A DNA stretch of 64,000 bases, from the NCBI RefSeq assembly GCF_030013595.1, contig NZ_CP122768.1. One strand, 5' to 3'. How positions within the stretch are numbered: position 1 is the first letter of the stretch; each line of letters begins with the position of its first letter. This DNA is from Escherichia coli. GTDB taxonomy: Bacteria; Pseudomonadota; Gammaproteobacteria; Enterobacterales; Enterobacteriaceae. Below the pieces are notes generated by a model that was not told the DNA's origin, made no database searches, and worked only from the letters and a program-made list of their open reading frames with translations. The translations under genes and the position numbers were made by a program. This document shows, in pieces, positions 1-31,885 of the stretch.

Positions 1-3000
1 CCCTGCCGCTGCCCGACGTCATCAGTGTACGACACAATGGTCGGCGTCGCGGTGGGGTTAATCGTATCGACCACCACCGTTTTCGACACCACCGGGCCAG
101 TATTCCCCGCCAGATCCAGCACCCGCACCTGGTAAACGTAGCTGCCGTCGGTCAGCGTGCGGCTGTCGGTGTAAGTCCACTGCGTACCGTTGGTGGTGAG
201 GGTGATCCAGGTCGCGCCGCCATCGAGGCTAATCTGCGCCACTTCGCCGCTGGCAAGCCCCGCCCCCAGCGAACCGGTTAGGGTGAGCGTGGTGTCACTG
301 GTGATAAAGTCAGTTGCCGAACTCCCCGTGTCGGTGCTGATGCTGGCGATGGTCAACACCTGCGCCGGGTTAACGGTGTCGATCTGCGCCGACTGGCTGC
401 TGGTTGCGCCAACGTTGCCCGCAAGATCGACTACCCGCACCTGCCAGGTGGTGGTGCCGTTGGTGAGCGTACGCCCGTCAACGTAACTCCAGTTAAGGCC
501 GTCTGCGGCGACGGTCACGTTCACCCAGGTTGCGCCGTTGTCGGTACTGATTTGCGCGAATTCGTTAGCGCCGAGCGCCGCCCCCAATACGCCGCGCACG
601 GTAAGCGTGGTGTCGCTGGTAATAAAATCGCTGCTGCTGGCTCCGGTGTCATCGCTGATACCGGTAATGGTGATGCTTTTCGCCGCTTCCGGGCTGGTGG
701 TGTCGACCACCACGTTTTGCGTCGCCGTCTGCCCGACGTTCCCCGCCAGATCCACCACCCGCACCGTGTAGTTCCAGGTACCGTCGGTCAGTGTGCGACC
801 ATCGGCATAGCTCCAGCTGGTGCCGATAACGGTTAAGGTTGTCCAGGTGACACCGCCGTCGAGGCTGATTTGCGCCCGTTCATCGGCGGCAAGCGTCGCG
901 CCGAGCGTGCCGCGCACGGTCAGCGTGGTGTCGCGAGTAACGAAATCGCTGCTGCTTAACCCAGTGTCATCGCTGATGCCCGCAATGGTGATGGTTTTGC
1001 TCGCCAGCGGCGCGGTGGTGTCCACGGTGACTATCTGGCTGGCAGTCGCGCCGATATTTCCGGCGGTGTCGATCACCCGTACCTGATAGTTGTAGTTGCC
1101 ATCGGTCAGCGTCCGCCCGTCAAGATATGTCCAGGTCAAACCGCTTACCGAAAGATTCTGCCAGGTGGTGCCGCCGTCGATGCTGATTTGCGCGAACTCA
1201 CCGGCAGAAAGCGCCGCACCCAGAGAGCCGCTCACCGCAAGCGTCGTGTCGCTGGTGACAAAATCGTTAGTGATCAGGCCCGTATCAGTGGTGATCGCGC
1301 TGATGGCGATGGTTTTTACTGTTGGATCTGGCGCGATGGTGTCGATCACCACATTCTGGCTGTCAGTGGCACCGACGTTGCCCGCCGCGTCAATCACCCG
1401 CACCTGATAGAGATAGTTACCATCGGTCAGCGTGCGGCTGTCGTTATAGCGCCAGGTCGTGCCGGTAACGGTAAGCGTGGTCCAGGTTACGCCGCCGTCG
1501 ATACTGATTTGCGCCGTCTCGTTACTGGCAAGCGCGGCGGTGAGCGAGCCGTTGACCACCACCGGGCTGACGCTGGTGATAAAGTCACTGGCGCTAAGGC
1601 CAGTGTCGGCTTGCAGGGAATCGATATTAATGCCCATCGCCGGAGCGCTGAGATCGACGGTAATGGTGTGATTGCTGCTGCCGGTGTTGCCAATGGCGTT
1701 GCTCACCGAGGCGTTAATCACGTAGGCGTTACCGTCCGCCAGCGCGGTGACATCGGCGCTGCCGAGGGTGTAGCTCCAGCTACCGCCGGTCTGTACCGTG
1801 GTGGTGTAGGTTTTGCCGTTTAAGGTCAGGGTCAGCGTCTGCCCGACTGGGGCGGTGGTGGTGCCGCTGATCACCAGCGACGAGCCGTGCTCCGCTGCAT
1901 TCACCACATCATCGCCCGCAAAGGTGTTGATGGTGACGGTAGGCACATCGCCGTTCAACGTCACGCCACGGCTGGCGCTGCCGGAGTTTCCGGCCTGATC
2001 GCTGACCGTCGCGCTAATGGTGTAGCTGCCGTCGCTTAATCCGGCAAACTGCTGCGCCGGAATAAACACCGACCAGCTTCCGCCGCTGCCGACCGTGGCG
2101 GTCCAGGTTTGTCCGTTAAAGGTGACCGTCACCGTCTGGCCCACTTCAGCGGTGGTGGTGCCGCTGATGGTTTGCCCAGCGAGCTGTTCGGCGTTGTTGA
2201 TAATATCGTCACCCGCCACCGTGGCGATGGTGACCGTTGGCGCAACGGTATCGACGGTCAGGGCGTGCGTGGTTTGACCGGGGTTACCGGCGCGATCGTT
2301 CACGCTGGCGGTAATGGTCTGTGCGCCCTGCCCGAGCGCGGCCAGATCTGCCGCAGGCACGTTCAGCGCCCAGGTGCCATTGGCGGCCACCGTGGCGGTA
2401 TAAGTTTTGCCGCCAAAGGTGACGGTTACCGTCTGCCCTACTTCCGCGCTGGTCGAGCCGTTAAGGGTTAACGGCTGCTGCTGTTCGGCGGCGTTGAGAC
2501 GATCGTCCGTCGAAACGGTGTTAATGCTGATAATCGGCGCGGTGAGATCCACCGCCACACTGCGCGAAGCCGTGGCGCTGTTTCCGGCGCTGTCCTGGGC
2601 GGAAGCGCTGACCGTGTAGCTGGTGCCATCGGCAAGCGCCGCAACGTCTGCCGCCGGCACGTTCACGCTCCAGCTCCCGTTGCTCTGAATGGTAGCGCTG
2701 TAGCCTTTGCCGTTAAGCAACACGGTCACTACTGTACCTGCGGCAAAGTTCGTTCCGGTGCCGCTCAGGGTCAGCGCACTGCCTGCTTCGGCGGCGTTAA
2801 TAAGGTTATCGCCGCTGATGGTGCTGACCGAGAGCGACACTGCCGCCGTGTTCACCTGCACGTTGTGCGTCTGCGTGCTGCTGTTGCCTGCGCTATCGGT
2901 GACAGTGGCGCTGATAGTCACTGTGCCGTCCGCAAGGCCGGAAATCACGCTGGCAGGCACGCCAACGCTCCAGTTGCCGCTGGCATCGGTGCTGGTGACA

Positions 3001-6000
3001 TACTGCTGCCCGGCGATGGTCACCACCAGGCGGTCGCCCGCCACCGCGCCCGAGGCGGTGCCGCTGATAATCTGCGCCTGAGTGTGTTCAACGTTGTTAA
3101 TCACATCGTCGCCCGCCACGGTGTTAAAGCTGATGACGGGCGCGGTGGTATCGACGGTCACACCTTTGCTGGCGCTGCCAGGGTTACCCGCCAAATCGCT
3201 GACCGTGGCGGTCAGGGTGTAGCCGTTATTGGCAAGTGCGGTTAAGTCGCTGGCGGGCAGCGTTAAACTCCAGCTGCCGTCTGCCTGCACCGTGGTCTGG
3301 TAGTTAGTGCCATTAAGCGTGACGGTCAGCGTCTGCCCTGCCTCCGCCGTGCTGGTGCCGGATACCGTCACGCCCGCCGCCGCTTCGCTGGCGTTGATGA
3401 TGTTATCACTGGCAATGGTGTTGATGGTCACCGTTGGCGCGGCGCTATCGACGCTGTATTCATGCGTTGCCGTGGCGCTGTTGCCGTTGACGTTAGTCAC
3501 CCGCACCTGGGCGCTGGCATCGCCGTCACGCAGGGCCGCCATATCCGCCGCCGGAACGGTGGTGCTCCAGCTACCGTTTGCCGCCACCGTGGTGGTGTAG
3601 GTTTTACCGCCAAAAGTAATGGTAACGGCTTGCCCCGCTTCGACGCCGGACGTGCTGCCGGAGAGCGTTAATGCCGCGCCTTTTTCGGCGGCGTTAATCA
3701 CATCATCGCTGGTGATGCTGTTTATGCTGACGGCGACGGTGGTGAGATCAACTGTCAGCGGATGGGTAATGCTGGTTTGCGTTCCGGCACTGTTCGCGCC
3801 GCTAACGGTAATGTTCAGCGTTCCCGCAGGCCAGTTGCTGACATCCGCCGCCGGAACGCCGACGCTCCAGCTGCCGTTTGCCAGCACCGTGGCGGCGTAA
3901 GTTTGGTTATTAATCACCACCGTCAACGCCGTACCTGCGGCAAAACCGGAACTGCTGCCAGTAATCACCTGCGCCTGGGCGTGTTCGATAATATTCACCA
4001 CATCATCGCCCGCGACGGTATCCACCCGCAGGCCGGGTAGACTGGCATCGATGGTGATATCGCGCGTGCCGCTACCGGTGTTGCCAACGGCGTTGGTCAC
4101 CGAGGCATTAACCGTTAACTCACCGTTACCCAGCGCCTGCCAGTCGGCGGCAGGTACGCTCACACTCCAGCTTAAATCAGCCTGCACGGTGGCGGTGTAA
4201 GTTTTACCGCCCAGTTCAACGGTGACGGTGCTGCCCGCCGCCGCACCGGTTACCTGGCCGCTGATGGTTTGTGCGCTGCCCGCCTCGGAAGCGTTGATAA
4301 TATCGTCCGTCGCCACCGGATTAATGGTGACGCCCGGCAGCGCGGTATTGACCTGCACGTTATGGCTGGCGGTACTGCTGTTGCCCTGAGCGTTGGTAAC
4401 GCTCGCCGTGACGCTATATGTGGCTTCGCCCAGCGCACTGACCGCCGAGGCAGGAACGGTGACGCTCCAGTTGCCAGAGGAGTCGGTGGTGGCGCTGTAG
4501 TTTTGTCCGTTCAGCGTAACGGTGATCGCCGTGCCCGCAGGCTGATCGCTGGTGCCGGAAAGCGCCAGATCGGATCCTTTTTCCATCGCGTTGATCACAT
4601 CATCGCCCGCGATGGTGTTGATGCTAATCACTGGCGCGCTGAGGCTGACGGTCACGGTGCGGCTGGCGTCATCGCTGTTACCCGCCCGATCGCTGACGCT
4701 GGCGGTGATGGTCTGTGCGCCGCTACCCAGTGCCGTAACATCCGCCGCCGGAACGCCAACGCTCCAGTTGCCGGAGGCATCCAGGGTGGTGGTGTAGGTT
4801 TTGCCGTTGAGCACAACGCTCACCACATCGCCCGCTTCCCCGCCCGTGCTGGTGCCGGAAATCACCAGCGCCTGCGCATGTTCGGCATCGTTGATAATGT
4901 CATCGCCCGCCACAGTGTTAATGGTGAGAACCGGCGCGGTGGTGTCTACCGCCAGATTATGGCTGGCGCTGCCGGGGTTGCCCGCTTTGTCGTTGGCCGT
5001 GGCGCTGACGGTGTAATTGCTTGCGGTCAGCGCGCCTAAGGCTGAAGGGGGAACGCTGACGCTCCAGCTACCGTCCGCCTGCACAGTGCCGGTGTAGGTT
5101 GCACCGTTAAGGGTGACGGTCACCGTCTGCCCGGTTTCGGCGGTGCTGGTGCCGCTGATGGTGAGCGGGCTTCCCGCCTCCGTGGCGTTAAGAATATCGT
5201 CGCTGGCAATGGTGTTAATGGTGAGCGTCGGTGCGCTGGCGTCAACGCTATACGCATGGGTCGCCGAGGCACTGTTACCGCTCGCGCTGCTGACACTGGC
5301 CTGCACGTTCGCCGCGCCGTCTGGCAGAGTTGCCAGATCTGCCGCTGGAACGTTCACACTCCAGCTACCGTTGGCGGCGACGCTTGCAGTGTAGGTTTTA
5401 CCGCCAAAAGTGACGGTAACGGTTTGCCCGCTTTCAATCCCGCTGGTACTGCCGGAAAGGGTCAGGTCGGTGCCTTTTTCGGCGGCGTTAATTACGTCGT
5501 CGCTGGCAACGGTGTTGATGCTGATTGCCACCGCCGTTAAATCGACGGTGAACGGATGGCTGACGCTGACTGGGTTATCGGCGCTGCTTTGCCCGGCTAC
5601 CTCAACGGTTAACGGCCCCGCAGGCCATGCACTAACGCTTGCCGCCGGAATGCCGACGCTCCAGCTCCCGTCTGCCTGTACCGTGGTGGAATAAGCCACA
5701 CTGTTGATGGTAACTGTCAGCACAGCACCTGCATTCAGGCCGCTACTGCCGCCGGTGATCACCAGCGCCTGCCCGTGTTCAATGCTGTTGACGATATCAT
5801 CGCCCGCTACCGTATCCACCCGCAGCCCCGGCAGGTTGGCATCAATGGTGATATCCCGCGTGCCGCTGCCCGTATTGCCATTAGCGTTGGTGACCGAGGC
5901 GGTAATGGTCAAATCACCATTGCCCAACGCCTGGAGATCGACTGTCGAAACGGTGACGCTCCAGCTTAAATTGCTCAGTACCGTAGCGGTGTAAGTGTTG

Positions 6001-9000
6001 CCGCCCAGCGTGACGGTGACCGTATCGCCAGCGGCGGCGCGGGTCACCACCCCGCTGATGGTTTGATCGGCCCCCGCTTCAGCCGCATTAATAATATCGT
6101 CGCCCGCCACGGTGTTAATGGTGACACCCGGCAGGCCGCTGTCGACCAGTAAATTCGCCTGGCTGCTGGTGGTGTTGCCTGCCGCACTGGTGGCGCTGGC
6201 GCTGACGATATAGTTGGCCTGGCCTAAAGCCGCCAGATCGCTCACCGGCACGGTTAACGTCCAGTTGCCCGCCGCGTCGGTGGTAGCGCTGTAGTTATGA
6301 CCGTTGAGTGTGACGGTAACCTGTGCGCCGGTCGCCAACCCCGTACTGCTACCGCTAATGGTCAACGGCTGGCCTTTTTCATCGGCGTTCAGGACGTTAT
6401 CGCCGCTGATGGCGTTAAAGATAATGGTCGGCAGCCCGGTATTGACCGTCACCTGATGGGTGGCGCTGCCGCTGTTTCCTCCGGCATCAGTGACGCTGGC
6501 GTTAATGGTCACCGTGCCGTTCGCCAGTACCGAGACAACGCTTGCCGGAACACCGACGCTCCAGTTGCCGCTGGCATCCAGCACGGTGGTGAAGGTATTT
6601 GTGCCGATAGTCACCGTCACGGTGCTACCGGTTGTAGCACCCGTGGCGGAACCGCTGATAATCTGCGCCTGGGCGTGTTCCGTCGCGTTGATCACATCAT
6701 CGCCTGCCACCGTGTTGATGGTGACGACCGGAACGGAAGTATCCACCGTCAGGTTGTGATTAACCGAGGCCGGGTTTCCGGCTTTGTCGCTCACCGCCGC
6801 GCTAACGGTGTAGTTGCTGGCGGTCAGGGCGCTTACGTCGGCTGGCGGTACGCTGACGCTCCAGCTACCGTCCGTCTGTACGGTGCCGGTATAGTTTGCG
6901 CCATTGAGCGTGACGGTCACCGTCTGCCCCGCTTCCGCCGTGCTGCTGCCAGTGATGGTCAGCGCAGCTCCGGCTTCGGCGGCGTTAAGAATGTCGTTGC
7001 CCGCAATGGTGTTAATGGTCACCGTTGGCGCGGTAGCATCGACGCTGTAAGCGTGGGTAGTGGTGGCGCTGTTGCCGTTAACATTGCTGACGTTGGCCTG
7101 CGCGCTGGCATCGCCATCACGCAGGGCCGCCATATCTGCCGCCGGAACCGAGGTGCTCCAGGAACCATTCGCCACGACGCTTGCAGTGTAGGTTTTGCCG
7201 CCAAAGGTCACGGTGACCGTTTGTCCGGCCTCCATACCAGAAGTGCTGCCGGAGAGCGTTAACGCCGCGCCTTTTTCGGCAGCGTTAATCACGTCATCGG
7301 CAGTAATGGCGTTGATGCTGACCGCTACCGCAGTGAGATCGACAGTCACCGGATGCGTAACGCTCACCGGGTTTCCGGCGGTGGTGTTGCCGCTCGCCGT
7401 AATTGTGACCGTCCCCGCAGGCCAGGCGCTGACATCTGCCGCCGGAACGCCGACGCTCCATGAGCCATCCGCCAGTACCGCCGCAACATAGGTTTGCCCG
7501 TTAATGGTCAGCGTGACGTTGCTGCCCGCTGCCAGATCAGAGCTGCTGCCGGTAATCACCAGCGCCTGTCCGTGCTCGATGATATTGACCACATCATCGC
7601 CCGCCACGGTATCGACCCGCAGACCGGGCAGATTCGCGTCGATGGTGATTTCACGCGTGCCGTTGCCGGTATTGCCTACGCTGTTCGTTACCGAAGCCGA
7701 AATGGTCAGCTCACCGTTGCCCAACGCCTGTAGCGCGGAGGCCGGAACATTAATACTCCAGCTTAAATTCGCCTGCACCGTGGCAGTGTACGTCGCCCCG
7801 CCGAGCGTGACGGTTACCGTGTCGCCCGCTGCCGCGCCCGTCACCTGCCCGCTGATGCTCTGGCCCGCGCCCGCTTCGGCAGCGTTAATAATATCGTCGC
7901 TCGCGACAACGTTAATGGTGACGCCCGGCAGCGCGGTATTAACCTGCACGTTATGGCTGGCGGAACCGCTGTTGCCATCAGAGTCAGTAGCGGCGGCGGT
8001 CACCGTGTAAGTGGCTTCACCGAGGGCGCTCACCCGTGACGCCGGAACGGTCACGCTCCAGTTACCGGATGCATCGGCAGTGGTGGTGTAATTTTGCCCG
8101 TTGAGCGTAACGGTTATCTGCGTACCCGCAGGCTGGTTACTGCTGCCGGAAATCGCCAGATCCGCGCCTTTCTCCGTGGCATTAATGATGTCGTCGACGG
8201 CAATGGTGTTAATGCCGAGTATCGGCGCGCCGAGCGCCACGGTGACAGTGTGCGAGGCCGTGCCGCTGTTGCCTGCGGAGCCGGTAACCGTGGCGGTAAT
8301 GGTGACATCGCCCTGCGCCAGTGCGGAAATCACGCTGGCAGGCACGCCGATGCTCCAGTTGCCGTTGGCGTCCAGCACGGTGGTGTAGGTGGTCGTGCCA
8401 ATCGTCACGGAAACCGTGTTACCCGTAGTCGCGCCCGTTGCTAAGCCGCTGATAATCTGCGCCTGTCCGTGTTCCGTGGAGTTAATGATGTCATCGCCCG
8501 CTACCGTGTTGATGGTAACGACCGGCGCAACGAGATCCACCGTCAGGTTATGCGTCGCCGAAGCCGGATTTCCGGCTTTGTCGCTGACCGCCGCGCTCAC
8601 CGTATAGGGGCTGACGGTAAGGTTGGCTAAATCGCCAGTTGGTACGCTGACGCTCCAGCTCCCGTCTGCCTGCACGTTGCCGCTGTAATTGACGCCGTTT
8701 AGCGTCACGGTCACCGTCTGCCCGGCTTCCGCCGTGCTGGTACCGCTGATGGTCAGCGCCGATCCCGCTTCGGCGGCGTTAAGAATATCGTCGCTGGCGA
8801 TGGTGTTGATGGTAACGGATGGCGCGGTGGCATCGACGCTGTAAGCATGCGTTGCCTGGGCGTTGTTACCCGCGACGCTACTGACACTGGCCTGGACGTT
8901 TGCTGTGCCGTCCGGCAAGGTTGCGAGATCGACGGCTGGGATCGTTAGCCCCCAGGTATTATCCGCGGCAACCGTGGTGGTGTAACTTTTACCACCGAAG

Positions 9001-12000
9001 ATAACGGTGATGGTCTGCCCCGCTTCCACGCCGGAGGTGGTGCCGGAGAGCTGCAAATCGCTGCCTTTTTCGGCGGCGTTAATCACATCGTCAGTGGAAA
9101 GGGTGTTAATGGTAATCGCCACGGCCGCGAGATCGACCGTGACCGGATGGCTAATGCTGGTTGTGGTTCCGGCGGTATTCGTGCCAGAGACGGCAATATT
9201 GACCGTCCCCGCAGGCCAGTTTGTGACATCTGCCGCCGGAACGCCGACGCTCCAGCTGCCATCGGCGAGTACCGTTGCGCCGTAGGTGACGCTATTGATA
9301 ACCACCGTCAACGCCGCCCCCGCCGCCAGTCCGGTACTGCTACCGGTGACCACCAGAGCCTGACCATGCTCGATAATATTGACCACATCATCGCCTGCTA
9401 CGGTATCGACGCGCAGACCAGGCAGGTTGGCGTCTATCACGATGTCGTGCGTTGCGGTGCCGGTATTCCCCACGCCATTAGTCACCGAGGCGCTGATGGT
9501 CAGTTCACCGTTGCCCAGCGCCTGCAAAACGTTCGCAGGCACGCTGACGCTCCAGCTTAAATCTGGCTGCACGGTGGCGGTGTATTGATTGCCACCAATG
9601 GTGACAATTACCGTATTCCCCGCAGCCGCCGTTCCCGTGACCTGCCCGCTGATGGTCTGCGCCACAGCGATTTCAGCGGCATTGATAATGTCATCGCCCG
9701 CCACCGTATTAATGGTCACCCCAGGCAGGAGCGATTCGACATTCACCGTATGGGTGGTGCTGCCGCTGTTGCCCGCGCTGTCGGTGGCGCTGGCGCTAAT
9801 CGAATAGACCGCCTCGCCCAGCGCGCCGACCGCCGAAGCGGGCACGGTAACGCTCCAGTTGCCGGAACTGTCGGTGGTGGCGCTGTACGCCAGGCCGTTC
9901 AACATCACGGTGACCGTGGTGCCAGTCGCCAGACCGCTGGAGCCGCCGCTGATGGTCAGATCCTGGGTTTTCTCCGTACTGTTAATAATGTCATCGTCGG
10001 AGACGGTATTGATGGTCAGCGTCGGGCCGCTGAGATCAACGGTCACATTATGGGTAGTGCTGTCGCTGTTGCCCGCGCGATCGCTCAGGCTGGCGGTGAT
10101 CGTCTGGCTACCGGTCGCCAGCGCCGTGACATCCGCCGCCGGAATGCCCACAGTCCAGTTACCGGAGGCGTCCAGCGTGGTGGTGTAGTTTTTACCGTTC
10201 AGCGTGACGATTACCACATCGCCCGCCGCCGCGCCCGTGCTGGTGCCGCTGACCACCAGCGCCTGACCATGTTCGATGGCGTTGATAATGTCATCGCCCG
10301 CGACGGTATTAATGGTGAGATCCGGCGCGGTGACATCCACCGCCAGCGCGTGGTCGGCGCTTGCCGAGTTACCCGCTTTGTCGCTCACCGTGGCGGTCAC
10401 GGTGTAACTGCTGGCGGTTAATCCGCTTAAATCCGTTGCCGGAACGTTCACGCTCCAGGTGCCATCCGCGAGAACAGTGGTCTGGTACGTGTTGTTATTG
10501 AGCGTGACGGTCAGCGTCTGTCCGGCCTGTGCCGTGGTGGTACCGCTGATGGTTATCCCCGCGCCCGCTTCGCTCACGTTAAGGATATCGTCGCTGGCGA
10601 TAGTGTTGATGGTCACAAGCGGCGCGGTGGCATCAACGCTGTACGCGCGATCGGCCTGGGCGTTGTTGCCGTTAATATTGCTCACGCTCGCCTGCACGTT
10701 GCCCGCGCCGTCCGGTAGCGCAGCGAGATCGGCAGGCGGCACATTCACCGTCCAGCTACCGTTGGCTTCAACGGTGGTGGTGTAATTTTTGCCACCAAAG
10801 GTGACCGTCACCGTCTGCCCGGCTTCGACACCGCTGGTGCTGCCGCTCACCACCAGCGTTTCGCCTTTCTCCACGGCGTTGATCACATCATCGACGGAAA
10901 GGGTGTTAATGGTGATGGCAACCGCCGCCAGATCGACGGTAACCGGATGGGTAATAGTGGAGGTTGTCCCGGCGCTGTTGGTGCCGCTTACGGTTATATC
11001 GACCGTACCCGCTGGCCAGTTGCTGACGTCTGCCGCCGGAACGCCGAGGTTCCATGTGCCGTCGGCTAACACCGTCGCGGCGTAAGTAACGTTGTTAATC
11101 TCGACCGTTAACGCCGTTCCCGCCGTTAATCCGCTGCTGCTCCCGGTGCTCACCAGCGCCTGATTGTGCTCAATGCTGTTAATAACATCATCGCCCGCCA
11201 CGGTATCGACCCGCAGCCCAGGCAGATTGGCGTCGATCGTGATATCGCGCGAGCCGTTGCCGGTATTGCCCACGCCGTTGGTGACCGAGGCATTAACCGT
11301 CAGGTCGCCGTTGCCCAGCGCCTGAATATCCGCCGCCGGCACGCTAACGCTCCAGCTTAAATTGGCCTGCACTGTGGCGGTGTAGGTGTTGCCGCCCAGC
11401 GTGATGGTAACGGTATCTCCCGCCGCGGCCCCCGTCACCTGCCCGCTGATGGTCTGGGCATTTCCCGACTCGGCATCGTTAATAATATCGTCGGTCGCCA
11501 CCGCGTTAATGGTGACGGCAGGCAGCGCGCTGTTGACCAGCACATTATGGCTGGCGGAATTGCTGTTGCCTGCGCTATCGGTGACGTTCGCCGTCACCGT
11601 GTAACTGGCTTCGCCCAGCGCACCGACAGCGGAGGCTGGCACCGTGGCACTCCAGTTGCCGGAAGCATCTGTGGTGGCGGTGTAATTTTGCCCGTTCAGC
11701 GTCACCGTAATGGTGGTGCCTGCGGGTTGATTACTGGTACCGGTAATTTGCAGATCCGCGCCTTTTTCCGTGGCGTTAATCACGTCATCGCTGGCGATAG
11801 TGTTGATGCCAATGGTTGGCGCGGTCAGATTCACGGTGACCGTGCGGCTGGCATCATCGCTGTTGCCTGCCGCGTCGGTAATGGTAGCTGTGATGGTTTG
11901 CGGGCCGCTGCCCAGCGCAGTGACATCTGACAGCGGAACGCCGACGCTCCAGTTGCCGGAAGCATCCAGCGTGGTGGTGTAGGTTTTACTGTTTAGCGTG

Positions 12001-15000
12001 ACGGTGATGACATCACCCGCTTCGCCGCCAGTGCTGGAACCGGAGATCACCAGCGCCTGTCCGTGTTCGGCGGCGTTAATAATGTCATCGCCGGAGACGG
12101 TGTTGATGGTCAGCACCGGCACGGTGAGATCCACCGCCAGCCCGTGAGTGGCGGTCGCAGGGTTACCCGCTTTATCGCTTACCGAGGCGCTAACGGTGTA
12201 CTGGCCGGCGGTCAGATTGCTAAGATCTGCCGTCGGCACACTGACGCTCCAGCTGCCGTCCGCCTGGACGGTGCCGCTGTAAGTCACGCCATTAAGCGTG
12301 ACGGTTACCGTCTGCCCCGCTTCGGCGGTACTGCTGCCGCTGATGGTTAGCGGATTGCCCGCCTCGGCGGCGTTCAGAATATCGTCGGTGGCGATGGTGT
12401 TAATGGCAAGCGTCGGGGCCGTGGCATCGACGCTGTAGGCGTGGGTTGCCGAAGCCGTATTGCCGTTAACGTTACTGACGCTGGCCTGTACCGTGGCGTC
12501 GCCGTCGCGTAATGCGGCGAGATCGGCAGCAGGTACACTGGTTGTCCAGCTGCCATCGCCCGCTACGGTGGCGGTGTAGGTTTTCCCGCCAAAGGTAACT
12601 GAGACCGTTTGCCCCGGCTCCACGCCGGAGGTGCTGCCTGAAAGGGTTAAATCGGCCCCTTTTTCGGCGGCGTTAATCACATCATCGCCGGAAACGGTGT
12701 TAATGGAAATCGCCACCGCCGCCAGATCGACGGTGACTGGATGGGTGATAGTGACCGGGTTTCCTGCGCTAGTGGCACCTGAAACCGTGATATTCACCGT
12801 CCCCGCAGGCCAGTTACTGACATCTGCCGCCGGAACGCCAACGCTCCATGTACCATCGGCTAATACCGTCGCGCCGTAGGTGACGTTATTGATCACCACC
12901 GTCAGCGCCGCGCCCGCCGCCAGCCCGCTGCTGCTACCGGTTATCACCAGTGCCTGACCGTGCTCGATGCTGTTGACCACATCATCGCCCGCCACGGTAT
13001 CGACGCGCAGACCTGGCAAATTGGCGTCGATAGTAATATCTCGCGAACCGCTGCCGGTATTACCAACGCCGTTGGTCACCGAGGCATTAACTGTCAGGTC
13101 GCCATTGCCGATGGCCTGAATATCCGCCGCCGGAACGTCCACGCTCCAGCTTAAATTCCCCTGCACGGTAGCGGTGTAAGTTTTCCCGCCAAGCGTTACG
13201 GTAACCGTATCGCCCGCCGCCGCACCCGTCACCTGGCCGCTGATGGTCTGCGCCACGCCCGATTCCGCAGCGTTGATAATATCGTCGCTCGCCACCGGAT
13301 TAATGGTGACGCCAGGCAGCGCGGTATTGACCTGCACGTTATGGCTGGCGGAATTGCTGTTGCCCGCGCTGTCGGTGACGTTCGCCGTCACCGTGTAGCT
13401 GGCTTCGCCCAGCGCACCGACAGCGGAAGCAGGCACCGTGGTGCTCCAGTTGCCGGAAGCATCTGTGGTGGCAGTGTAATTTTGCCCGTTCAGCGTCAGC
13501 GTAATTGTGGTGCCAGCTGGCTGATTACTGGTGCCGGAAATTTGCAGATCCGCGCCTTTTTCGGTGGCGTTAATCACGTCATCGGTGGCGATGGTGTTAA
13601 TGCCAATGGTCGGCGCGGTCAGATTCACTGTAACCGTGCGGCTGGCATCATCGCTGTTGCCTGCCGCGTCGGTAATGCTGGCGGTGACAGTTTGCGGGCC
13701 GCTGCCCAGCGCCGTGACATCCGCCGCCGGAACGCCGACGCTCCAGTTGCCGGAGGCATCCAGCGTCGTGGTGTAGGTTTTACTGTTTAGCGTGACGGTG
13801 ACGACATCCCCCGCTTCTCCGCCAGTGCTGGAACCGGAAATCACCAGCGCCTGCCCGTGTTCGGCGGCGTTAATAATATCGTCGCCCGCAATGGTGTTGA
13901 TGGTAAGTACCGGAACGGTGAGATCCACCGCCAGATTATGCGTGGTGCTCGCCGGGTTGCCCGCTTTGTCATTGACCGTGGCGGTCAGGGTGTGGCTGCC
14001 ATCGGTCAATGCCTCAAGATCTGCCGCCGGAATATTGATGCTCCAGCCGCCGTCCGCCTGCACCGTTGCCTGATAGGTCTGCACGGTCGGGCTATTGAGC
14101 GTTACCGTAACAATCTGCCCCGCTTCAGCGGTGGTGCTGCCGCTCACCGTCACACCCGCATCGGCTTCGCTGGCGTTGACGATATTGTCGCTGGCGACGG
14201 TATTGATAATGATGGTTGGCGCGCTGCTATCCACACTGTAGCTGTGCACCGCCGAGGCGCTATTGCCGTTAATATTGCTGACGCTGGCCTGCGCGGAGGC
14301 GCTGCCCTCTGGTAATGCTGCCAGATCGGCGGCGGGAACGGTGGCAGTCCAGCTACCATCGCTCGCCACGCTGGCGGTGTAATTTTTCCCACCAAAGGTG
14401 ACGGTGACGGTTTGACCGGGTTCTACGTTAGTGGTGGTGCCGGAAAGGGTTAAATCAGCGCCTTTTTCTGCGGCGTTAATCACATCGTCCGTGGCGATGG
14501 TGTTGATGGTAATCGCCGCCGGCGTGAGATCGACCATAACCGGATGCGTAATGCTCACCGGATTTTCGGCGCTACTTTCCCCGGATACGGCAATATTAAC
14601 CGTCCCCGCAGGCCAGACGCTAACCTGCGCCGCCGTGACGCCCACGCTCCAGCTACCATCGGCCTGCACCGCAGTGATGTATTCCACATTATTAATTGTG
14701 ACGGTAAGCGGCGTGCCTTCAGCCAGCCCCGAGCTGCTGCCGGTGACCACCAGCGCCTGCCCGTGCTCAATGATATTGACCACATCATCGCCCGCCACCG
14801 TATCGACCCGCAGACCGGGCAGATTGGCGTCGATGGTGATATCCCGCGTGCCGCTGCCGGTGTTGCCGTTTTGATTGGTGACCGAGGCGCTCACCGTTAA
14901 ATCGCCATTACCCAGCGCCTGAATATCTGCCGCCGGAACGCTCACGCTCCAGGTGAGATTGCTGCCCACCGTCGCCGTATAAGTATTACCGCCCAACGTA

Positions 15001-31769: not shown

Positions 31770-31885
31770 TTGCCGGATGTAAAATATGAAAAATATGTAG
31801 GCATGATAAGACGCGCCTGCGTCGCATCAGGCATTGAGAGCAAAATGCCAGATGCGGCGTGAACGCCTTATCTGGCCTACGAACC
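31770..31885. repeat. REP pair (BIME-like) between convergent ybaL and gsk
   Basis: taggcatgataagacgcgcctgcgtcgcatcaggca (31798-31833) and tgccagatgcggcgtgaacgccttatctggcctacg (31846-31881) are inverted REP-like palindromes. Confidence 0.65.

Follow-up and report, generated by a model that had tools for sequence, protein, structure and literature searches.

The gene and its setting

The first 18 kb of the DNA examined here—64,000 nt of Escherichia coli contig NZ_CP122768.1 (RefSeq assembly GCF_030013595.1), which we refer to as 'the window'—are occupied by a single gene, siiEA, that encodes a giant, repetitive adhesin. Two stretches within its repeat array, which we call tracts A and B, resemble each other more closely than any other pair in the gene, and it is the origin of this resemblance that concerns us. 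The features involved are collected in Table 1.

The reading frame of siiEA is free of stops from position 18050 down to position 3, a span of 6016 codons, and more than 6000 codons of the gene itself lie within the window. The N-terminal 990 amino acids (aa) match the NCBIfam model for the BapA-related adhesin SiiEA (NF047714) with 490.6 bits, against a cut-off of 425, and residues 5–69 match the BapA prefix-like domain (NF033677; E = 4.6e-20). Farther along, the Ca_tandemer model (NF033510) matches six stretches in each of the ~1.8-kb super-units of which the array is built, and a two-domain peptide from the tract matches PDB entry 4P99, the tandem immunoglobulin (Ig)-like domains of MpAFP region II, with E = 9e-59. 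The C-terminal part of the gene lies outside the window and was read, instead, in the closest complete genome, that of strain HCP5S3_I2 (NZ_CM149870.1; locus L001), in which the gene is annotated as siiEA by RefSeq and is 99.8% identical to the window. It contains a type I secretion target domain (TIGR03661; E = 2.3e-9), an RTX nonapeptide repeat (HemolysinCabind; E = 1.7e-4) and FG-GAP repeats. Adjoining the gene in HCP5S3_I2 are annotated genes for a type I secretion ABC transporter, an HlyD-family adaptor and a TolC-family protein. The locus is chromosomal, with cueR and the type I secretion genes on one side and ybaT-glsA-copA on the other, and its G+C content is 0.61 versus about 0.52 for the remainder of the 64 kb. 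Complete E. coli genomes carry siiEA in 959 of 5426 cases.

The gene is the known RTX/BapA-type, type I-secreted giant adhesin of E. coli O-island 28 (OI-28), whose secretion and adhesive function are, in this strain, predicted. Gene and chromosomal site are those of RtxA28/RtxB28 (Z0609/Z0615) of OI-28. A 2025 paper on this island of EHEC reports a type I secretion and adhesin system that is activated by RstA, responds to Ca2+ and is required for early adherence, and roles in adherence and colonization have been published for the O157:H7 ortholog (PMC12758282). The name siiEA traces to the annotation of UMN026 (PMC3256949).

Table 1. Positions of siiEA, its repeats, its putative patches of exchanged sequence and neighboring features in the window
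Feature	Position	Partner position	Strand	Remarks
siiEA coding sequence	1..18020		minus	BapA-related RTX-type giant adhesin of O-island 28; ATG at 18020; runs off the window start
Array of ~1.8-kb super-units	2865..15983		minus	Six ~100-aa Ig-like extender domains in each; from self-BLAST, anchors and unit spacing
Super-unit SU1	13023..14825		minus	1803 nt; holds tract B
Super-unit SU2	11229..13022		minus	1794 nt; holds tract A
Tract A	11549..12137	13343..13931	minus	Domains U18-U19, aa ~1972-2168; 91.9% nt and 94.4% aa identity to tract B
Tract B	13343..13931	11549..12137	minus	Domains U12-U13, aa ~1374-1570; partner of tract A
Putative conversion patch 1	11559..11680	13353..13474	minus	A copy with B-type sequence; partner is donor-type sequence
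Putative conversion patch 2	13593..13684	11799..11890	minus	B copy with A-type sequence; partner is donor-type sequence; shared only with lineage L004
Longest exact direct repeat	11839..11883	13633..13677		45 nt; longest in the portion of the gene within the window; inside patch 2
SU2/SU1 crossover interval	11545..11577	13339..13371		Apparent junction in allele WP_021574491.1; edge of tract
Second crossover interval	8703..8803	10503..10603		Second shorter allele, WP_001550748.1; strains 54214 and KTa008 (L002, L012)
Antisense open reading frame	11547..11930	13341..13790	plus	Compared in the first-pass annotation; not a gene; opposite the 6016-codon frame
TolC-family outer-membrane component	18129..19484		minus	Of the dedicated type I secretion system; premature TAA at 18315-18317

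Organization of the repeat array

The gene contains about 52 consecutive Ig-like domain units of ~100 aa. Their nucleotide identity averages 69% at a lag of six units and 54% at lags of one to five, and the array is therefore built not of single domains but of super-units of six. The same period emerges from a self-BLAST match at an offset of 1792 nt (2865–14189 against 4657–15983), and from an anchor motif, (N/S)LPGLRVDTVAGDD, that recurs in register at 14825, 13022, 11228, 9428, 7634, 5837 and 4043. Tandem Repeats Finder reported no repeats in positions 1–20000; it handles periods of up to 500 nt, and the units have diverged too far. A general search for repeat families returned many, 60–80% identical, but did not resolve the high-identity tract, for which our own alignments were used instead.

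At its far end in the window (1–1610, minus strand), the protein changes character. The last ~536 aa comprise a different repeat type, also of ~100 aa (…DTGLSSSDFIT…DGGxTW…), that matches Ca_tandemer weakly, and with it the extender domains give way to a C-terminal repeat family of another kind.

Tracts A and B

Aligned at an offset of 1794 nt, tracts A and B differ at 48 of 589 positions, without an indel, and their translations at 11 of 196. Over a wider span (11229–12140 against 13023–13934) identity falls to 89.4%. The profile along this offset is uneven: 83–87% from 11229 to about 11530, 90–95% from there to about 12070, and a drop past 12140. Seen over the whole period, SU1 and SU2 are 91–95% identical across ~600 nt, 82–87% on one flank and 66–79% over the rest. 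The two are 81% identical overall, and the remaining pairs that the six in-register super-units can form 67–76%, which bears out an earlier impression that these are clearly more diverged. Among all 1326 pairs of domain units, the two from the tract are the most similar (92.3% and 90.7%); the third pair is formed by the adjoining units of the same two super-units (84.3%), and the best pair from elsewhere reaches 83.3%. In a maximal-segment permutation test the observed score was attained in none of 2000 shuffles. The clustering of high identity is not due to chance.

Synonymous divergence (dS) between the tracts is 0.27–0.30 (about 0.28), nonsynonymous divergence (dN) 0.028, and dN/dS about 0.1. 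The median proportion of synonymous differences for the other in-register pairs is 0.56, so that synonymous divergence in the tract is about half of theirs. In those other pairs, the alignment columns that correspond to the tract are among the least conserved, at 55–75%.

The first-pass annotation, made from the sequence of the window and its open reading frames (ORFs), had described the two copies as near-identical, on the grounds that ORFs in the two regions give almost the same translations. The copies are indeed the most similar pair in the gene, at 91.9% versus 84% or less, but 'near-identical' overstates the case: they diverge by 8%, and the longest exact run that they share is 45 nt. 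The ORFs exist, too—the pair in Table 1, whose translations are 81% identical, and a further pair at 11770–11982 and 13531–13776—but they lie on the plus strand, which is the wrong one. They are antisense artefacts, by-products of a giant, G+C-rich gene on the other strand.

It had also been suggested that repeats so similar might have been collapsed during assembly. Within 1–18050 there are no exact direct repeats longer than 45 nt, and the two copies differ at no fewer than five positions in any stretch of 100 nt, and at no fewer than seven in any 150. The siiEA gene of HCP5S3_I2 differs from the window by eight substitutions and by indels of 23 and 9 nt, none of them inside 11500–13800, and it has the same number of super-units. 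Neither long exact repeats, then, nor a disagreement over copy number with the closest complete genome was found, and collapse appears unlikely here.

Age of the similarity

For comparison we used seven full-length alleles from other lineages, O55:H7 and O145 among them, and, for the identity between tracts, two alleles more. Over 18.3 kb the seven run colinear with the window, with no difference in the number of super-units. Within each strain, tracts A and B are 84.2–87.8% identical in the seven and 85.6–85.7% in the additional two. When a 641-nt piece of the tract was searched against 952 genomes that carry siiEA, the median was two matches per genome. The SU1/SU2 pair has 151 differences between A and B that are fixed across the seven strains. 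In those strains the dS between tracts is 0.46–0.63, compared with 0.28 in the window; the value for the window is equal to the mean dS between orthologs of the tract in different E. coli lineages. The heightened similarity of A and B is thus an old feature, common to all of the siiEA alleles examined.

Two patches of probable exchange

What distinguishes the window is superimposed on this old similarity. When each copy was compared, by sliding window, with its orthologs and with its paralogs, clade membership flipped at two places, patches 1 and 2; the segments between and beside them cluster by ortholog. In patch 1 the A copy of the window differs from B copies, whatever the strain, by five to eight mismatches, and from its A orthologs by as many as 24–26. 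Within the window, A and B agree here at 94% of positions, as against 81–88% within other strains. In patch 2 the roles are reversed. Here the B and A copies of the window are 95% identical, and the B copy, together with that of lineage L004, from which it differs by one nucleotide, is 8–11 mismatches from A copies and 21–23, out of 92, from other B copies.

No other part of the gene is a plausible source. The best match to either patch elsewhere in it is at most 83% identical over a short stretch, and at most 78% over the full length; and a search of the gene for another donor that might explain the patch 2 state of the other strains, instead, found none. The A alleles next closest to the window in the collection (95.0% and 94.4% identical), which come from the two additional alleles with A and B copies 85.6–85.7% identical, lack both patches. 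These alleles differ from the window at 13–14 of the 122 positions of patch 1 in the A copy and at none in the B copy, and, of the 92 positions of patch 2, at one in A and 21 in B. An A allele at least 99% identical to that of the window occurs in only 5 of the 952 genomes. Both patches, then, are paralog-like, confined to a sub-lineage, and without an alternative donor in the gene. The suggestion of gene conversion, which had originally been offered as an alternative to duplication, is upheld by these two patches, closer as they are to the paralog than to the orthologs and missing from the two nearest alleles in the database.

Two other approaches proved uninformative. Polarizing the fixed differences over SU1/SU2 yielded only five B-like sites in the A copy of the window and missed the patches, because only 9 of the 182 variable columns within the tract are fixed. 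And at all 65 of the polymorphic A columns considered, one allele has the B base (65/65), an observation that we rejected as evidence, as simple divergence predicts the same.

Alleles that lack a super-unit

Strain Res13-Sevr-PER07-33 (NZ_CP062811.1; L013) has an intact siiEA gene of 6308 aa with a single copy of the tract. Its sequence follows the register of the A copy up to about window position 11545, and that of the B copy from about 13371 on. The allele is therefore a fusion of SU2 and SU1 that has lost one super-unit, the junction falling at the edge of the tract. Exactly this protein appears under four accession numbers, counted on four contigs, and is therefore unlikely to be a one-off artefact. 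A query spanning the junction, used to look for further SU1/SU2 fusions, found only this one complete genome at 99% identity or better. The tract had been predicted to act as a recombination substrate, and this natural allele supports that prediction. The N-terminus of the L013 protein is shortened and altered, reading MCAIYQECHYEPSVV... versus MSLIIDVISRKTSVKQTLINPGDVTVVIYEPSVV... in the window, and this affects the BapA prefix-like domain.

A second shorter allele, of 6324 aa, also lacks one super-unit. The super-units are only about 70–80% identical where it crosses over, and since this crossover site is elsewhere (Table 1), unequal exchange is not limited to the SU1/SU2 tract. Strain Z0117EC0005 (NZ_CP098223.1; L003) has ~0.9 kb extra, or roughly three units, at window positions 16318–16374, toward the N-terminal end of the array; siiEA in this strain is flagged as frameshifted, with an internal stop.

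Origin of the tract

Two layers of history would account for these observations. The first is an old homogenization or duplication, common to all of the siiEA alleles examined, that would have left the copies 84–88% identical. The second is a pair of non-allelic conversions in this lineage, opposite in direction, by which ~120 nt of B-type sequence would have entered the A copy, and ~90 nt of A-type sequence the B copy. Together the patches would lift an old baseline of ~86% to the 92% seen today, across a tract that spans 0.6–0.9 kb and pairs domains 12–13(–14) with 18–19(–20). We consider it about 80% probable that this combination explains the SU1/SU2 tract and that the copy number in the window is genuine.

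How transfer took place at the molecular level, in which direction it ran, and in what setting, be it within one chromosome or during uptake of foreign DNA, we infer from the patterns described. In the mechanism that we favor, two copies out of register by one period of 1794 nt recombined homologously, perhaps in dependence on RecA, or a template switch occurred between them; by another route, imported DNA might have been integrated out of register. Efficient recombination by RecA in E. coli requires roughly 25–30 nt of perfect identity, and the alignment of tracts A and B contains six exact runs of 26–45 nt. Resolved in a different way, as an unequal crossover, the same misaligned pairing could remove exactly one super-unit.

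Several points weigh against this account, or at least against its simplest form. The polarity of the changes was assigned by parsimony over ten alleles rather than from a rooted tree. Patch 1 is closest not to the B copy of the window (eight mismatches) but to that of another strain (five); the transfer, therefore, may have taken place in a different lineage, or in the course of misaligned recombination with imported DNA. Patch 2 differs from A copies at 8 of its 92 positions, and is either older or derived from a donor that has not been sampled. Orthologs are so diverged in the tract (mean dS 0.28) that allelic recombination must also shape the pattern, and it is hard to separate entirely from conversion. 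The super-unit count was judged from assemblies rather than from reads of the source isolate. The 6308-aa fusion allele, finally, might be an artefact that assemblies reproduce, although with copies 8% diverged this is unlikely.

In an alternative account, diverged siiEA alleles of different E. coli lineages recombined with one another in the ordinary, allelic way, and paralogs within this chromosome exchanged nothing. In comparisons of the window with single strains, blocks that are 99.8% identical adjoin blocks that are 92% identical, much as such recombination would leave them; patch 1 is nearest to the B copy of a different strain, and patch 2 is common to the window and L004. The patches are paralogous in type, however—B in A, and A in B—and non-allelic transfer must therefore have happened at some point. 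Nor does any sampled strain, other than the five near-identical genomes, have an A allele with patch 1 from which it could have been acquired. We regard allelic recombination by itself as an improbable explanation.

Stronger purifying selection on both pairs of domains, reflecting a binding function that they share, for example, could keep them alike without any exchange of sequence, and the low dN/dS of about 0.1 and the 94% identity of the two as protein are what one would expect from it. But selection on the protein by itself does not account for the similarity: synonymous divergence is reduced as well, to roughly one-half of its value in other pairs. Other super-unit pairs show little conservation in these columns, the excess similarity is confined to two discrete patches that switch clades, and between strains the tract is among the most polymorphic blocks, at 90.8% identity. 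It is very unlikely that selection is the cause.

Recent tandem duplication of one super-unit, the two copies of which have since been diverging, was the other possibility raised originally, and it fits the layout well: the copies sit side by side, offset by exactly one period, and no other pair in the array is as similar. Recent duplication is excluded, nevertheless, because other E. coli lineages, represented by nine alleles, have both copies at 84–88% identity. Identity that ranges from 66 to 95% across the period, when it should be uniform, argues the same way, as do the colinearity of both copies in all seven alleles from other lineages, the median of two matches in 952 genomes, the 151 fixed differences, and a dS of 0.28 in the window and more elsewhere; as an account of the tract we give it next to no weight. 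An assembly artefact, whether a chimeric consensus of collapsed repeats or a different true number of super-units, might be suspected in so repetitive a gene, 9 of 16 RefSeq loci of which are flagged and which must thus be either error-prone or decaying, but it is just as improbable, given a longest exact repeat of 45 nt, at least seven differences per 150-nt read, an independent complete genome that is identical over 11500–13800 and has the same architecture, the same super-unit count in seven other lineages, and a reading frame that stays open through 6016 codons.

Comparison with other repetitive adhesins

Ours is a known gene, displaying a known kind of tandem-repeat dynamics. In Legionella RtxA, in Bap, SasG and Aap of staphylococci, and in the alpha C and Rib proteins of streptococci, too, some copies are homogenized by repeat exchange, and unequal crossover alters the number of repeats without disturbing the reading frame. 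The exchange in siiEA differs from these in being sparse, consisting of patches of ~90–120 nt between copies that are 85% identical, in an array that is far from homogenized; and copy number in siiEA is stable in most lineages, unlike that of surface proteins with variable numbers of repeats. The history of siiEA at the level of its repeats was not found in the papers that we searched.

In organization, siiEA resembles MpIBP/MpAFP of Marinomonas primoryensis, region II of which (PDB 4P99) likewise consists of Ca2+-stabilized Ig-like extenders and is accompanied by C-terminal RTX repeats and a type I secretion signal. The region II repeats of MpIBP are essentially identical at the DNA level, which makes them a true hazard for assembly; the units of siiEA, by comparison, are 54–92% identical, with a longest exact repeat of 45 nt. 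By the dimensions of MpIBP extender domains, one super-unit would amount to roughly 30 nm of stalk. Natural siiEA alleles differ by whole six-domain super-units.

Salmonella SiiE (PMC6272769, PMC5466336) and BapA are also secreted by type I systems and composed of tandem bacterial Ig domains, and SiiEA shares the N-terminal BapA prefix-like domain. With SiiE itself the connection is one of name, given by analogy only: the family model for SiiEA is BapA-related, its locus is not SPI-4, and the six-domain periodicity is a feature found here.

The significance of these results is, for the most part, a matter of housekeeping. Antisense artefacts have been exposed as such, the repeat count appears trustworthy, and the similarity of the tracts is what ordinary exchange between repeats would produce.

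Variation between alleles, and lesions in the system

For work on OI-28 and SiiEA it is worth noting that lineages differ far more in the array than in its flanks, the most unusual feature that we saw. Orthologous alleles (L004, L005 and L007–L011, compared with window positions 1–18000) are 91–96% identical over the repeat array, in which blocks of 99.8% identity lie beside blocks of 92% and the mean dS of orthologs is 0.28 in the tract; the flank at 18001–18300 is 98.6% identical between lineages. Divergence of this kind is compatible with recurrent exchange between repeats. One might go further, and picture the extender array as a generator of diversity that serves as its own template, through conversion in both directions and an occasional unequal crossover, with the SU1/SU2 tract as a hot spot. 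Such a device would yield high allelic divergence and adhesins of various lengths, possibly under selection by immunity or phage, but we offer the idea as speculation that is probably wrong.

In the window, the gene for the TolC-family component is interrupted by a premature stop that replaces Leu390 and removes 62 aa, the result of a single T in place of A at 18316 when compared with the closest RefSeq genome. The dedicated secretion channel of this strain may thus be defective. In that relative it is the adhesin, instead, that is damaged: siiEA in HCP5S3_I2 is frameshifted by a 23-nt tandem duplication (TGCCGGAACCGTCACGCTCCAGT), and it has a 9-nt insertion as well; the sites correspond to 15230 and 17611, both open in the window. 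One relative has thus been hit in the adhesin, and the other in the channel. O157:H7 offers a similar contrast, for there the adhesin is split by an internal stop, whereas here it is open and the TolC-family gene is the one prematurely stopped.

Lesions are common at the locus. Nine of the 16 siiEA loci that were inspected (L001–L014, L016 and L017; L015 duplicates L001) carry a pseudogene flag, be it for a frameshift, an internal stop or incompleteness. The flagged loci include those of O157:H7, the two halves of which are treated as functional adhesins in published work. Some of the flags may be due to indel errors in long reads. Inactivating lesions in so many database copies of siiEA, or in its secretion partners, bear on the question of which strains express a functional adhesin. 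An apparent deletion of 12.4 kb in O157 proved to be an artefact of the way in which pieces had been joined; the 20,460-nt gene of O157:H7 strain PV15-279 is colinear with the window except for about 318 nt near its 3' end.

Beyond siiEA, the closest RefSeq genome has a 1.43-kb IS1397 element, of the IS3 family, between ybaL and gsk, which is missing from the window at ~31815–31819. Otherwise, from 18 to 62.6 kb, the two are 99.95–99.97% identical.

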